DNA from: a virus
Lineage: Duplodnaviria > Heunggongvirae > Uroviricota > Caudoviricetes
IMG/VR virus record: IMGVR_UViG_2636415673_000003
Length of the DNA stretch: 26,193 bases
Direction: 5' to 3' (one strand)
Below the pieces are notes generated by a model, which saw only the letters and a program-made list of their open reading frames with translations, was not told where the DNA came from and searched no databases. Shown in pieces: positions 5,299 through 12,160 of this stretch. A program made the translations under genes and the position numbers. Each line of letters opens with the position of its first letter. Position 1 is the stretch's first letter.

Positions 5299-6774
5299 TT
5301 AGGAGCGCCAAAAAAAACCTGAAAACAATATAATAACAGGATAAATTTCAAGGCGACCAAGAATCATAGCTATGCACATTAAACATTTTGCAATGTCATT
5401 AAGCACTCCGAATGACGATGCAGTAGCCCCAAAACCTAATCCCATATTATTAATACATGCAGCCACTGTTGCAAATGATGTAAGAAAATCATATCCCATA
5501 CCATTTAACACCAGTATAAAAAACACCGTGAAGAGAGTATAAAGAAAAAAGAAACTCCATACAGACCTCATTACACGATCTGTAACTATCTTCCCTCCTA
5601 CATTTACACTCAACAACGCTCTGGGATGAGAAAGCTGATTTATCTCGTGTTTGCTTTGTTTGAAAAGTATAAGAAATCGAAGTGACTTAATTCCACCACA
5701 AGTTGAACCTATACATCCCCCAAAGAAACTTGACAACAGCAAAAACACTATCGTGTGCGTGGGCCAACTTGCATAATCCTGCGTAGCTAAACCATTATCA
5801 GTGAGCATGGAGCTGGCAAGAAAAAACGAATGAATAAAACTTCCATGCAAGTCATACATACCTATATGCCAGACCTGGAAAGAGGTAACAATGATCACCC
5901 CTAAGGCTATTAACAGAAAGAAACGAAGTTCAATATCTCTGATTAAAGGTTTTATCGTTTTCCTGCTAATAACAATATACCAAAGAGTGAAGTTGAAAGC
6001 CGATAGCAGGGAAAAAGAACCAGCCACCAGCTCAACCAAATAGTTATTAAAATATCCGATACTCTCGCTATGAGTTGAGAAACCACCAAGCGAAACTGTG
6101 GAAATCCCGTGACAAATAGCATCAAACAAAGGCATTCCTGCAAGTCTATAACAGACAATACAAGCAATACCTAATAAAGAATAAGTTATCCACAGTGTCC
6201 GTGACGTATCGGCCAGGCGGGGAGTGAGTTTGTCATCCTTAAATGGCCCCGGCATTTCTGACTGATAAAGCTTTGCACCACCAATACCCAATAATGGCAA
6301 TACAGCAACCGCCAGAACAATAACTCCTAAACCACCTATAAAATTTAACTGTGACCGATAGTACAAATATGCCCGAGGTAATGAACTAACATCATCAATT
6401 ACAGTTGCTCCTGTTGTTGTTATTCCAGAAACCCCTTCAAACAGAGCATCAATGAACGTTAAATTAAGTTCTGAGTCAATCCATAAAGGGAATGCACTAA
6501 TAACAGAAAACAAAATCCAAAACATTACAATTATAATAAACCCATCACGGGTACGTAATTGAATGCCAGATTTCTTAGTTGTATACCACGCTCCGCCACC
6601 AATGCAAAAAAATATAACGAAAGTTATAAAGAAAACGAACAGGCTTTTTTCTTTATAAAACAATGCTACAACCATTGGTGGCAACATTGAAAGACTATAG
6701 AGCCAAACCAGGAACCCACACATATGAGTAACAACTCTTACATGAGATGTATTCATATCTAAATATTCTTTCAA
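5299..6774 (-). CDS. trkG: TrkG, Trk-system K+ uptake membrane protein (prophage cargo gene)
   Basis: 491 aa polytopic membrane protein of the TrkH/TrkG family; AT-rich; positioned just past Rz/Rz1, as I recall for trkG in K-12 Rac. Confidence 0.9.
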   Translation of the reverse strand: MKEYLDMNTSHVRVVTHMCGFLVWLYSLSMLPPMVVALFYKEKSLFVFFITFVIFFCIGGGAWYTTKKSGIQLRTRDGFIIIVMFWILFSVISAFPLWIDSELNLTFIDALFEGVSGITTTGATVIDDVSSLPRAYLYYRSQLNFIGGLGVIVLAVAVLPLLGIGGAKLYQSEMPGPFKDDKLTPRLADTSRTLWITYSLLGIACIVCYRLAGMPLFDAICHGISTVSLGGFSTHSESIGYFNNYLVELVAGSFSLLSAFNFTLWYIVISRKTIKPLIRDIELRFFLLIALGVIIVTSFQVWHIGMYDLHGSFIHSFFLASSMLTDNGLATQDYASWPTHTIVFLLLSSFFGGCIGSTCGGIKSLRFLILFKQSKHEINQLSHPRALLSVNVGGKIVTDRVMRSVWSFFFLYTLFTVFFILVLNGMGYDFLTSFATVAACINNMGLGFGATASSFGVLNDIAKCLMCIAMILGRLEIYPVIILFSGFFWRS

Positions 6775-7358: not shown

Positions 7359-7831
7359 ACCTCAATCTCTCTGACCGTTCCGCCAGCTTCTTTGAATTTT
7401 GCAATCAGACTGTCAGCCTTATGCTCGAACTGACCATAACCAGCGCCCGGCAGTGAAGCCCATATATTGCTGCAACGGTCGATAGCCTGACGGATATCAC
7501 CGCGATCAATCATCGGCAAAGCGCCACGCTCTTTAATCTGCTGCAGCGCTACAGCATCCTGACTTTCTGGAGAAAAATCTTTCAGGCCAAGTTGCTTGCG
7601 GTAGGCATCCCACCAGCGTGAAAGAAGCTGGTAACGTCCAGCGGCTGTTGATTTGAGTTTCGGATTTAGCGTGACAAGTTTGCGGGGGTGATCGGAGTAA
7701 TCAGTGAACAGTTCGCCACCGACAATAACATCATAACCGTGATTTCTGGTTTTCTGCCGTCCGTTATCTGTTCCTTCTGACCATGCCACCATATCAAGGA
7801 AAGCTTTACGCTGGGAATTAAGTGTCTGCAT
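7355..7831 (-). CDS. Endolysin, lambda R-like lytic transglycosylase
   Basis: 158 aa ORF nearly collinear with lambda R as I recall it ([57 protein letters not shown]...). Confidence 0.9.
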
Positions 7832-7834
7832 TAA

Positions 7835-8176
7835 TTACTCCTTATGGGCACCGAACTTGTTACCGATGACCCTCATTGCCGCACCACGAATAGCATCAAC
7901 ACCAATCAGCCCCACCCCACCACCAATGGCAACAGAAAGTGATTTAGGCCATCCGACATACTCAAGCGCGGATGCAAAGGTCAGCGTCAGAGCACCACAA
8001 AGCAGAATCTCAAGCGTTTTTCGTTTCCAGCCGCCGCCACCGCCAAAATAGGCAATGCGCAAACCAGCCATAATAATTGACATAACCACTGCACCCAGCG
8101 GCGTATCTCCACGCCACCAACTTTGTAAGAGTTCCAGTAAGTCAGGCCAGGAATGAGGGGCATTGTGCATTTTCAT
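7835..8176 (-). CDS. Holin with dual-start motif (Met-Lys-Met: antiholin/holin)
   Basis: ORF directly upstream of the endolysin with predicted TM segments and a charged C-terminus. GGAGG sits 8 nt upstream of ATG-AAA-ATG, the lambda S-type dual start. Confidence 0.75.
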   Translation of the reverse strand: MKMHNAPHSWPDLLELLQSWWRGDTPLGAVVMSIIMAGLRIAYFGGGGGWKRKTLEILLCGALTLTFASALEYVGWPKSLSVAIGGGVGLIGVDAIRGAAMRVIGNKFGAHKE

Positions 8177-8269
8177 AAGCCTCACCTCCGAGAGTTCGGA
8201 TGGTGCTAAGTGTAAGATTCAGGCTCTCAGGCTTGCTAACAAGAAGTCGAGGATGTTTCCAGAGCCTAA

Positions 8270-8300
8270 CAACGAAAAAGCCCCGGGACATGCCGGGGCC
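8270..8300 (-). terminator. Rho-independent terminator between the cargo gene and the holin
   Basis: On the minus strand, a 7-bp GC stem (GCCCCGG/CCGGGGC, plus 8280-8299) followed by TTTTTCGTT. Confidence 0.5.
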
Positions 8301-8393
8301 AGATGGAGTGCCAGATTAAGCTTCTGGCGGTATATACTCGTGTTTGATATCGTTAAATCGCCAAAAGTAACAATTCAAACAAAGAGGATTTTT

Positions 8394-8555
8394 ATGTCTG
8401 AAAAAAACAAACCACAAGGTGAAAATAAACCTCAGCAACCCGTGGCACCAAAACCAACTCCAACACAAAGTACTACAGACTTTGCTACACGTCGTGTTTT
8501 TGTTGGAGATTCTGCCGACTCAGTCATTGAACATATAAAAAAACAGCCGAGATAA
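8394..8555 (+). CDS. Small hypothetical protein (53 aa), convergent with and overlapping the 3' end of the membrane-protein gene
   Basis: ATG at 8394 preceded by AAGAGG (8382-8387). The N-terminal half is Pro/Gln/Lys-rich and looks disordered. A strong hairpin follows the stop. Confidence 0.45.
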   Translation: MSEKNKPQGENKPQQPVAPKPTPTQSTTDFATRRVFVGDSADSVIEHIKKQPR

Positions 8556-9093
8556 ACATCGCCGCTACCGGAGCAAGGATGGTATACATCCTTGCTTTAT
8601 CGAGACTCGTGCGGATTTTCTCATTTTCCAACAGTAACTCTCTTGCTGTATCACTCAAGTCAACAAGGCGATACCTTCGTATAAGCGGCAATAACTTATC
8701 AGGTCCTAAATATCCTGCATCAGCGAATATTTTAAAGCTCGAGGGCTCCATATCCTTATATTTTTCATGATATATATGATCAGGAGGGGCATTGATCAGG
8801 CCCCTAACCTTCACAGATAAACCAGTACATACCAAGTAAATGGCGCACCATGTCCATAGTAATGTAAATGTGGTAATTCCGGCGGTGAGAAAATCGAAAT
8901 TAGTTTTCTGTGTCAGCAATAAAAAAGATGAACCAATTCCAACAATCTGAATGTTCAGAAGTTTGTATCCATTCTCAACATTGGTTTTGTTAGAAAGATG
9001 AATCTCTCGTATCGTCTCTTCCCCTTGTTTTTCAAGATAATCGACGAGCTCATCATCTACTCCTAAAAAATAATCTTTAGGTAGTTCTCTCAT
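8524..9093 (-). CDS. Cargo membrane protein (189 aa, ~3 TM segments) between Q/tR' and the lysis cassette; function unknown
   Basis: AT-rich ORF with GGAGG 4 nt upstream of the ATG. Soluble N-terminal ~45 aa, two central hydrophobic segments, and a C-terminal hydrophobic tail. Occupies the position stx or nmpC take in other lambdoid phages. Confidence 0.65.
   Translation of the reverse strand: MRELPKDYFLGVDDELVDYLEKQGEETIREIHLSNKTNVENGYKLLNIQIVGIGSSFLLLTQKTNFDFLTAGITTFTLLWTWCAIYLVCTGLSVKVRGLINAPPDHIYHEKYKDMEPSSFKIFADAGYLGPDKLLPLIRRYRLVDLSDTARELLLENEKIRTSLDKARMYTILAPVAAMFISAVFLYVQ
8572..8600 (+). terminator. Putative terminator of the small '+' gene
   Basis: Perfect 10-bp stem (AGCAAGGATG/CATCCTTGCT) with a 5-nt loop, then TTTATC; lies inside the 3' coding region of the minus-strand gene. 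Confidence 0.4.
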
Positions 9094-9199
9094 CTCACCT
9101 CCACATCCTGTACTGAAAACAATTTTACCAGAATGTCTCGATTCTAGGTATTCCGCCAGGAATCGCGCTCCAGAAATGAAACATCAGGTTCACCAGTAC

Positions 9200-9230
9200 C
9201 AGAAACAACAAAACCCGCTCAATGGCGGGT
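9200..9230 (-). terminator. tR'-like Rho-independent terminator downstream of Q (Q-antitermination target region)
   Basis: On the minus strand, CCCGC-CATTGA-GCGGG followed by TTTTGTTGTTT, about 90-110 nt downstream of the Q stop, as for lambda pR'-tR'. Confidence 0.6.
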
Positions 9231-9314
9231 TCTGGTAAAGTTCATGCGCTTGGTTCGCCTCGCGATACAGCTTTGCGAAGCATACCGGAATTGAAGCAGT
9301 TTATGCGTAAAAAA
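9231..9314 (-). promoter_or_regulatory. Probable late promoter (pR'-like) and qut region
   Basis: Position between the Q stop and the tR'-like terminator. The -35/-10 hexamers could not be assigned confidently by eye. Confidence 0.35.
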
Positions 9315-9770
9315 TCAAGCTATTTTTTGAGCAAATGATTCTCGCATGGGAATATATAGGGCATACTCAGCAACAGCCAACCAATTAGCAATTCGCTTTT
9401 CGCATGTGCTAAAACACCACTCAGGATGTGCATCATTTAGCAATTCAGCCATTTTGCGCTTAGTCATCCCCCGTCCTTCATACCGTTGCCGGAGGACACT
9501 AATCAATCCAGGATGCTCTGCCAGCACCTCACTTATGACTCGATCAATACATAACGCCTCTGCATCAGTACAATGCGCCAGCCAGCTCTTTTGCTTGCCG
9601 TTGATCATCTCTCGCAAAAACGCTTCCAGCTCAGCTTTCTCTATTCCCGCTTTTTTCATTCTGCGCAGGGCTTCATTGATGGCTGTTTTCGTCAATTTTT
9701 TGGATGCCAACAACTGATTGAACATATTTCCTGACCTGCCACCGCCAATATACGACCAGCGCCCCCACAT
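9315..9770 (-). CDS. Late-gene antiterminator Q (Phage_antitermQ-type)
   Basis: C-terminal ~150 aa carry an LRMWGRW motif near the N-terminus, like the L.RWG.W motif I recall in E. coli prophage Q proteins (e.g. QuuD). The ORF extends upstream to 9977 but would overlap the preceding gene; the internal ATG at 9770 is preferred. Confidence 0.65.
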   Translation of the reverse strand: MWGRWSYIGGGRSGNMFNQLLASKKLTKTAINEALRRMKKAGIEKAELEAFLREMINGKQKSWLAHCTDAEALCIDRVISEVLAEHPGLISVLRQRYEGRGMTKRKMAELLNDAHPEWCFSTCEKRIANWLAVAEYALYIPMRESFAQKIA

Positions 9771-12034: not shown

Positions 12035-12160
12035 TCAGAGCCTCCGTCTGCCAGTTCGGATTCGTACCTCGCAGAGGTCTTTCCTCGTTACCAGTGCCGT
12101 CACTATGACGGTTAAACAGATGACGATCAGGGCGATTAACATCGCCTTTTGCTGCTTCAT
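12035..12160 (-). CDS. hok: Hok-family type I toxin with truncated/divergent C-terminus (41 aa)
   Basis: MKQQKAMLIALIVICLTVIVTALVTRKDLCEVRIRTG matches the HokD/RelF N-terminus as recalled, then ends RRRL-stop instead of the usual ~15 further residues. A short upstream ORF ends in ATGA overlapping the hok start (mok-like coupling). Confidence 0.75.
   Translation of the reverse strand: MKQQKAMLIALIVICLTVIVTALVTRKDLCEVRIRTGRRRL

Follow-up and report, generated by a model that had tools for sequence, protein, structure and literature searches.

The slot between the antiterminator gene Q and the holin gene of lambdoid phages is known to carry stx and nmpC. Accessory units of this general kind are treated under the moron concept (Hendrix and Juhala), as reviewed in "The moron comes of age" (PMC3594210). 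Antisense control is described for prophage type I toxin-antitoxin (TA) systems with a 3'-overlapping antisense RNA, such as bsrG/SR4, txpA/RatA and yonT/SR6 of Bacillus subtilis (PMC3834814, PMC3531473, PMC5848175), and P22 SieA exemplifies the prophage inner-membrane exclusion protein (PMC10883804). Here we analyze a cassette that invites comparison with all of these. It lies in a 26,193-nucleotide (nt) stretch of Caudoviricetes DNA (IMG/VR record IMGVR_UViG_2636415673_000003), which as a whole is called the window below. The cassette consists of a gene for a 189-amino-acid (aa) membrane protein on the minus strand and a gene for a 53-aa protein on the plus strand, which face each other and share their 3' ends over 32 nt (8524-8555; Table 1).

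Our main finding is that two unannotated protein families form an obligate convergent, overlapping and RNA-structured gene pair that is maintained over a very large evolutionary distance. We tentatively read the pair as a membrane effector that is checked by the convergent small gene and that serves phage exclusion or abortive infection with a TA-like logic, a reading to which we give somewhat less than an even chance. The coordinates, strands, ribosome-binding sites (RBSs) and overlap that a first-pass annotation of the window had listed for the two genes were all as listed.

Conservation of the gene pair and its products

Relatives were pooled from a word-indexed search, which gave 104 homologues of the 189-aa protein, from an exhaustive profile search with the 189-aa protein, which gave 100 cluster representatives at the 50% identity level, and from DNA loci out of GTDB genomes, IMG/VR and public assemblies. 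A convergent overlap of 20-35 nt is retained in all cassettes examined. The membrane protein has a length of exactly 189 aa in 94 of the 97 loci with a full match and in nearly all of the 104 homologues, and 70 of 72 distinct cassettes have an intact small open reading frame (ORF), which encodes 47-64 aa. Of the two exceptions, one contains an ambiguous base. The other, IMG/VR locus L043, is frameshifted within a run of seven adenines in codons 3-5 of the small ORF (8400-8407) and has an intact 189-aa gene; this frameshift could be a sequencing error, or it could mean that the small protein is naturally lost or phase-variable. Pairwise identities of the two proteins correlate (r = 0.78), a value reached by none of 2000 Mantel permutations. 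Thus, the gene pair travels as one unit.

The small ORF diverges in the manner of a protein-coding gene. Outside the overlap with the membrane gene, the ratio of nonsynonymous to synonymous substitution rates (dN/dS) is 0.02-0.5 and mostly 0.1-0.3. Differences at codon positions 1, 2 and 3 number 584, 471 and 995, insertions and deletions are multiples of three, and the small ORFs of loci L003 and L004 differ by 11 synonymous changes and 1 nonsynonymous change. Since the third codon positions of the small ORF coincide with those of one antisense frame, stop codons were also tallied in each of the six frames for 34 diverse representatives. The small-ORF frame is open in 33 of 34 and each other frame in at most 10 of 34, and the antisense frame was rejected on this count as an alternative coding explanation. 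In the window, this antisense frame of 31 codons opens at an ATG that overlaps the stop codon of the membrane gene (ATGA, 8524-8527); it is probably fortuitous, since it is not conserved among relatives.

Comparative data place the conserved start of the small gene at ATG 8394, which is preceded by a GGAG-type RBS. PGAP (WP_152948782) and PHROG 14506 instead use GTG 8340, giving 71 aa, a start that we rejected since relatives support ATG 8394 and 53 aa. The region 5' of ATG 8394 is a conserved non-coding block rather than coding sequence. This corrects the annotated start of the small gene.

These results bear on whether the small ORF is a functional protein gene at all, or whether the antisense RNA alone matters, or nothing does, and the ORF was annotated in error within low-complexity sequence. 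While the protein is short, of low complexity and predicted to be disordered, while the automated annotations pick another start and while one variant is frameshifted, the frame is nonetheless intact in nearly every cassette, the ATG and RBS are conserved, dN/dS is well below 1, and the excess of synonymous changes between L003 and L004, the indels in threes and the sole open frame all point the other way. Additionally, a remote clade (described below) keeps a peptide motif through synonymous changes. We consider a non-functional small ORF essentially excluded. Judged by conserved length, intact frames and low dN/dS, both genes are real, as the first-pass annotation had them, and under purifying selection.

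Three transmembrane (TM) segments are predicted in the 189-aa protein from hydropathy and charge, at residues ~44-62, 70-92 and 168-187, which bears out its earlier designation as a membrane protein. Only two residues (VQ) follow TM3, and there is no charged C-terminal tail. About 115 of the 189 aa are predicted to lie outside the membrane. An AlphaFold2 (AF2) model built on a 34-sequence alignment, with a predicted local distance difference test score (pLDDT) of 83.4, has long helices at residues 14-62, 68-92 and 134-188. The N-terminal stretch is acidic (11 acidic and 5 basic residues), and the charge distribution would place this stretch and the 75-aa middle domain, a helical bundle, in the cytoplasm. 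Conserved positions comprise VGIGSSF in TM1, W80 and A84 in TM2, P104, an RRYRL stretch and P175. They are residues of helix packing, and no polar or catalytic residues are conserved besides. The Gly/Ser-rich TM1 together with the long helical bundle suggests an oligomeric membrane-perturbing or channel-like effector. The gene is repeatedly found broken: it is frameshifted in L008, where the small ORF is intact, has a transposase-like ORF inserted in L009 and is truncated in L010. Alleles of 96-130 aa also recur (the broken proteins P0033, P0083 and P0226).

The small protein is hydrophilic, basic (pI 9.7) and rich in Pro, Gln and Lys, with the motif DFxxxRVxVGDSA followed by a basic tail. Its AF2 model (pLDDT 67) contains only a short C-terminal helix at residues 41-50, the remainder being disordered. 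The charges of the two proteins are complementary, as would be expected if they were partners, with the small Pro-rich protein acting as a cofactor, adaptor or sensor subunit that docks, for example, on the acidic cytoplasmic bundle. The overlap would then only couple expression levels within a two-component exclusion or conversion device that has no TA logic. Such a partnership would fit the strict co-inheritance and co-divergence of both proteins and the selection on the small protein itself, not on RNA alone, and L043 hints that viability may not depend on the small ORF. However, cooperating subunits are normally co-transcribed, the combination of a convergent overlap and a conserved, strand-specific hairpin typifies antagonistic antisense control, and very distant relatives keep the arrangement despite their altered peptide sequence. 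A partnership without antagonism is therefore unlikely in our judgment.

Both ORFs are annotated as hypothetical everywhere they were found. Searches of Pfam, NCBIfam, PADLOC and the PDB, as well as fold searches, gave no match naming either protein. The only matches were to PHROG 11870 (membrane protein) and PHROG 14506 (small protein), both of which are without functional annotation. The first-pass annotation had recognized neither protein, and profile and structure searches likewise give no characterized family. A Pfam scan of 64 diverse family members returned scattered sub-threshold matches only (8xMP, DUF6249, PycTM and YLATT), and the literature on 8xMP held nothing useful for the membrane protein. 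We rejected a SLATT/PycTM relationship (PF18967 PycTM, PF20303 YLATT): the matches involve single members at E ~0.016-0.054, far below gathering scores, they recur in 0 of 10 further distant members, and other SLATT-type models are not among the matches. The membrane protein has no holin family match in Pfam, NCBIfam or the PHROG lysis annotation, and no Pfam match to PF14373 (T4 Imm-like superinfection immunity), an Imm_superinfect gene merely adjoining one remote homologue. The small protein has no helix-turn-helix, ribbon-helix-helix or AbrB family match. Lastly, neither the proteins nor the pair are described in the searchable literature and database entries, including work on lambdoid morons and defence hotspots.

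Table 1. Positions of the cassette genes, RNA structures, candidate promoters and adjoining genes in the window
Feature	Position	Strand	Details
Q (DUF1133/Phage_antitermQ)	ends at 9315	-	first in late gene order
tR'-like intrinsic terminator	9209..9234	-	by scan, 10-bp stem followed by TTGTTTCTGG
Candidate promoter of membrane gene	9122..9137	-	box GACATTCTGGTAAAAT; -10-like TAAAAT
189-aa inner-membrane protein gene	8524..9093	-	ORF; RBS GGAGGTGAG at 9094-9102, directly 5' of ATG
Conserved RNA hairpin	8570..8598	+	15-43 nt after small-gene stop, within membrane-ORF codons ~ARMYTILAP
53-aa protein gene	8394..8555	+	AAGAGGA five nt 5' of ATG; conserved motif and selection
Most conserved non-coding block	8343..8371	+	TTTGATATCGTTAAATCGCCAAAAGTAAC; candidate promoter and 5' leader of small gene
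Hairpin GCCAGA-N7-TCTGGC	8310..8328	-	membrane-gene 3' untranslated region, just 5' of terminator
Cassette-end intrinsic terminator	8270..8300 (8300..8279 plus T-run)	-	by scan, 8-pair stem with 7 G-C pairs, then TTTTTCGTTGT
Lambda-family holin PF05106	7835..8185	-	next gene after cassette

RNA structures and candidate promoters

The hairpin that follows the small-gene stop is conserved as a structure. It is kept in all 32 distinct sequences, over which 94% of its cells are paired and 5 of its 12 pairs have changed on both sides. Its score exceeded that of each of 500 shuffles, and pairing in slid controls was ~50%. Read on the minus strand, pairing is 76%, because ~20% of the cells are G.U pairs, and from this G.U asymmetry the hairpin is assigned to the plus transcript. 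Its compensatory changes sit at synonymous sites of the membrane ORF. A consensus scan did not call the hairpin a terminator, its tail TTTATCGA being too T-poor, with no U-tract. The probable role of the hairpin lies in the 3' end, the stability or the processing of the small-gene RNA, and it is no canonical terminator.

On the minus strand, the same scan found both terminators, at 9234..9209 and 8300..8279. The latter is also the consensus helix of RNAalifold, with compensatory changes in 6 of 8 pairs over 17 cassettes, and 21 of 34 diverse cassettes have a strict terminator-like site ahead of differing holin families. This cassette terminator is predicted to insulate the holin gene from transcription that starts within the cassette. 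The first-pass annotation had given each gene a terminator of its own. That proposal stands for the minus strand, where the site at 8270-8300 is conserved and covarying; the plus-strand hairpin is real but lacks a U-tract. The same annotation had the minus transcript antisense to the entire small gene, which holds provided that the transcript ends at the conserved terminator.

The second minus-strand hairpin, at 8310-8328, is kept in most cassettes with changed arms, as seen by inspection. GCCAGA/TCTGGC is the commonest form, GCCAGT/ACTGGC is another, and GCCGC/GCGGC occurs in Trabulsiella-type cassettes. Its wobble pairs are on the membrane-gene strand. RNAalifold did not recover this hairpin, owing to register shifts between sequences. 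It overlaps the spot expected for the -35 element of a small-gene promoter. Rfam gave no meaningful match within 7700-9500.

Each gene is preceded by a candidate promoter. The box 5' of the membrane gene (9137..9122) reads TGgTAAAAT in the window, the TG being that of an extended -10 element, and TAAAAT or TAAGAT is found ~35-40 nt 5' of the membrane-gene ATG in ~29 of 34 diverse cassettes, regardless of the upstream neighbour. For the small gene, the conserved block of Table 1, defined on an alignment of 33 diverse cassettes, includes the extended -10-like motif TGATATCGT (8345-8353), 49 nt 5' of the ATG. The pattern TGnTAnnnT lies 46-57 nt 5' of the small-gene ATG in 27 of 34 cassettes and within 70 nt in 28 of 34. 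From these sequence patterns we infer promoter activity of both -10-like boxes, and likewise the ends of the transcripts. Two other candidates were set aside. The conserved block was considered as a LexA box or palindromic operator and rejected for wrong spacing and, by inspection, the swapped arms of the adjoining hairpin. A sigma-70 site at 9380..9351 was considered as pR' and not relied upon, as scan sites were no more numerous than chance.

Distribution, gene neighbours and remote homologues

Four vB_EcoS phage records contain the 1.1-kb region practically without change, as do 223 of 5426 complete E. coli genomes (~4%). In ~1270 E. coli genomes only the Q/tR' end matches and the cassette is absent. 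Because these cassette-less genomes match from Q only to ~9199, we place the slot boundary at tR': the terminator at 9234..9209 is the upstream boundary of the slot and part of the Q module, outside the cassette. Cassette-less E. coli prophages with the same Q/tR' hold tRNA-Thr, tRNA-Gly, other ORFs and an EssD-type holin in the slot, which agrees with the first-pass placement of the cassette as late-region cargo in a variable position after Q and tR'. The membrane gene had also been called AT-rich, and the GC fraction of the cassette is indeed 0.37-0.43, compared to 0.46-0.53 in the flanks. Beyond E. coli, the cassette is a recurrent cargo unit across Klebsiella, Citrobacter, Salmonella, Serratia, Yersinia, Proteus and Pantoea prophages. 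On this pattern of presence, composition and linkage, we read the cassette as a self-contained, horizontally mobile two-gene accessory unit (moron) of temperate phages.

Several loci show further arrangements of the slot. L110 and L111 (E. coli ATCC 8739, ST38) have tRNA-Thr and tRNA-Gly genes and other cargo in it, and in L111 the Q-proximal genes are closely preceded by iteS, an anti-phage peptidase gene. In the Citrobacter locus L011, tRNA genes directly follow the cassette and replace its terminator.

The window represents a lambdoid E. coli prophage that resembles Rac and has its late genes on the minus strand, in the order Q, terminator 9234..9209, 189-aa ORF, holin, GH24 endolysin, Rz/Rz1 and trkG. 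The late region is flanked by a hok/gef-family gene (~12035-12160, minus strand) and trkG (~5299-6756, minus strand), as in Rac. The window is 99.9% identical to and collinear with E. coli TUM14771, except that the IS5 of the TUM14771 prophage is missing from the window, at site ~13490.

In 34 diverse enterobacterial cassettes, the upstream neighbour is a Q gene of PF03589, PF06530/DUF1133 or PF06323, three families that are mutually unrelated, or else a Rha, KilA-N, ORF6N or tail assembly chaperone gene. Downstream lies a holin gene of PF16931, PF04971, PF05106 or PF16083, or else a lipoprotein or other gene. These neighbours bear on a role in lysis, in which the membrane protein would be an accessory such as a timing regulator, an antiholin-like protein or a holin helper, encoded by the first gene of the Q-dependent late transcript and damped by the small gene until induction. 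A small multi-TM protein whose late-strand gene is flanked directly by Q/tR' and the holin, as is the case here and in ~60% of diverse enterobacterial cassettes, would suit such a role. Nevertheless, a conserved intrinsic terminator separates the membrane gene from the holin gene, the holins downstream belong to at least four unrelated families, the cassette also stands beside Rha, KilA-N, ORF6N and tail-chaperone genes, and remote homologues occur in immunity regions far from lysis genes. The protein additionally lacks both a holin Pfam match and a charged C-terminal tail. We thus find a lysis accessory improbable; a lysis-timing regulator, one of the roles suggested at first pass, is disfavoured by the terminator, the diversity of holins and the loci away from lysis genes.

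Remote homologues of the membrane protein, with 17-25% identity and 175-181 aa, occur on high-GC phage contigs (L019, L021, L022, L104, L106, L108 and L113-L117); scans for this clade gave 1 locus in viral contigs and 6 loci in metagenomes. Most of the remote loci lie in immunity regions, with the leftward early operon on one side and a cI-like repressor gene on the other. In one case the neighbour is an Imm_superinfect gene, and in another the context is non-phage. The remote membrane genes are transcribed against their neighbours. All 10 distinct remote loci examined contain a convergent Pro-rich ORF of 27-37 codons, whose position relative to the membrane-gene stop ranges from a 9-nt overlap to a 12-nt gap. 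The encoded peptides share the motif P-[EQ]-P-E-x-R-R, which is kept via synonymous changes that include CGC<->AGG arginine switches, and a clear GGAG RBS is seen in front of two of these ORFs. The presence of a convergent Pro-rich ORF in the remote clade therefore makes it an ancestral feature of the family and no local accident. Immunity regions are classical places for prophage exclusion and defence genes.

The distribution also bears on lysogenic conversion, in which the membrane protein would act on the host (by ion or solute leak, stress tolerance, envelope modification or colonization) from its own promoter, with the small gene as regulator. The moron architecture with its own terminator and candidate promoter would allow this, slots of this type also host virulence and fitness cargo such as stx and nmpC, and many of the E. 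coli genomes with the cassette are from human isolates. Still, the membrane protein shows no similarity to transporters or envelope enzymes and no conserved polar or catalytic residues beyond its helix-packing motifs, and its remote homologues cluster with repressor and superinfection-immunity genes. We regard conversion as rather improbable.

Proposed working and comparison with known systems

We return to the tentative reading of the cassette as a checked membrane effector. Its TA-like part is proposed because the convergent pair is strictly conserved. A role in exclusion or abortive infection is proposed because remote homologues lie in immunity regions, because an elaborate brake would be needed and because the membrane gene is recurrently inactivated in nature. 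The first-pass annotation had likewise suggested a TA-like or an abortive-infection/exclusion module, with which these observations are compatible. A toxic membrane protein, regulation in the direction described here, oligomerization and an anti-phage role are all presumed in what follows. In the lysogen, the small gene would be transcribed from its own extended -10 promoter. Its RNA, with the conserved 3' hairpin, would be complementary to the 3' end and 3' untranslated region of the membrane mRNA, and the small protein may bind the membrane protein at its acidic, presumably cytoplasmic part, such that the RNA, the protein or both would hold the membrane protein at a low level or inactive. 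The cassette terminator would block transcription initiated in the cassette from entering the holin gene. The trigger could be late transcription that is antiterminated by Q and runs on through the cassette, or it could be a superinfecting phage that halts transcription or translation in the host. On such a shift, the small-gene RNA would be swamped through convergent transcription and antisense pairing, and the released membrane protein would act on the inner membrane.

Several observations count against this reading. Homology gives no support for toxicity or an anti-phage effect, and PADLOC-DB 2.0 contains 0 families that match either protein at E <= 1. The membrane protein is, at 189 aa, far above the size of type I toxins, and the supposed antitoxin transcript is itself protein-coding. 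The frameshift in L043, if it is no sequencing error, argues that the small protein is no essential antidote, and the two products could be partners and not antagonists. Additionally, the two-hexamer consensus scan calls neither candidate promoter.

A broader version of the proposal, which we hold to be doubtful, is that the cassette represents an undescribed class of two-gene switch that extends from Enterobacterales to high-GC Proteobacteria. The convergent gene would combine an antisense RNA and a Pro-rich protein to gate a three-TM pore effector, acting as a hybrid RNA/protein antitoxin on a toxin of abortive infection or exclusion. A further possible function of the Pro-rich ORF is to sense translation status. 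If a membrane toxin with a dual RNA/protein brake is indeed present, it would add a new architecture to the biology of toxin-antitoxin systems and prophage defence, in a compact system of ~0.9 kb that is easily tested. The location adds to the interest, as the same Q-holin slot bears Shiga toxin and other medically important cargo.

Comparison with described systems sets the cassette apart from some and close to others. It resembles holin/antiholin arrangements in that, on the Q-dependent late strand, a membrane-protein gene directly precedes the holin gene. It differs from them in the lack of a family match and of a charged C-terminal tail, in the terminator between the genes and in an inconstant linkage to lysis genes. 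From type II TA systems it differs in having convergent genes and not a co-directional operon, and a disordered small protein without a DNA-binding fold. With SieA, lambda RexB, SieB and T4 Imm it shares a small multi-TM inner-membrane protein encoded by a prophage accessory gene, and its remote homologues adjoin a repressor gene and in one instance Imm_superinfect. Those proteins have no detectable sequence or fold relationship to the membrane protein described here and are without a convergent small-protein partner.

The closest mechanistic precedent is type I TA with a 3'-overlapping antisense RNA. As in those systems, a prophage-borne membrane gene faces a convergent partner whose predicted RNA is complementary to the 3' end of the mRNA, and the partner RNA, here a predicted transcript, includes a conserved stem-loop. 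However, the toxins of those systems are hydrophobic peptides of <60 aa, in contrast to a 189-aa protein with three TM segments and a putative cytoplasmic bundle, and their antisense RNAs are non-coding, in contrast to an antisense gene that encodes a conserved protein under purifying selection. The B. subtilis loci also differ in host, that of the cassette being a gamma-proteobacterium. Because of the 189-aa membrane protein and the protein-coding antisense gene, the cassette falls outside type I TA; by analogy it is at most similar in its working and no member of the class.

In its genetic organization, the cassette compares most directly with morons. Like them, it is an AT-rich extra unit amid conserved late genes, with its own terminator and a candidate promoter, that is present or absent among homologous prophages and occupies several insertion slots. 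Most described morons are single genes, whereas this cassette is an obligate convergent pair with a 3' overlap and conserved RNA structures. We rate the architecture as unusual and deeply conserved, that of a moron with a proposed TA-like antisense control.

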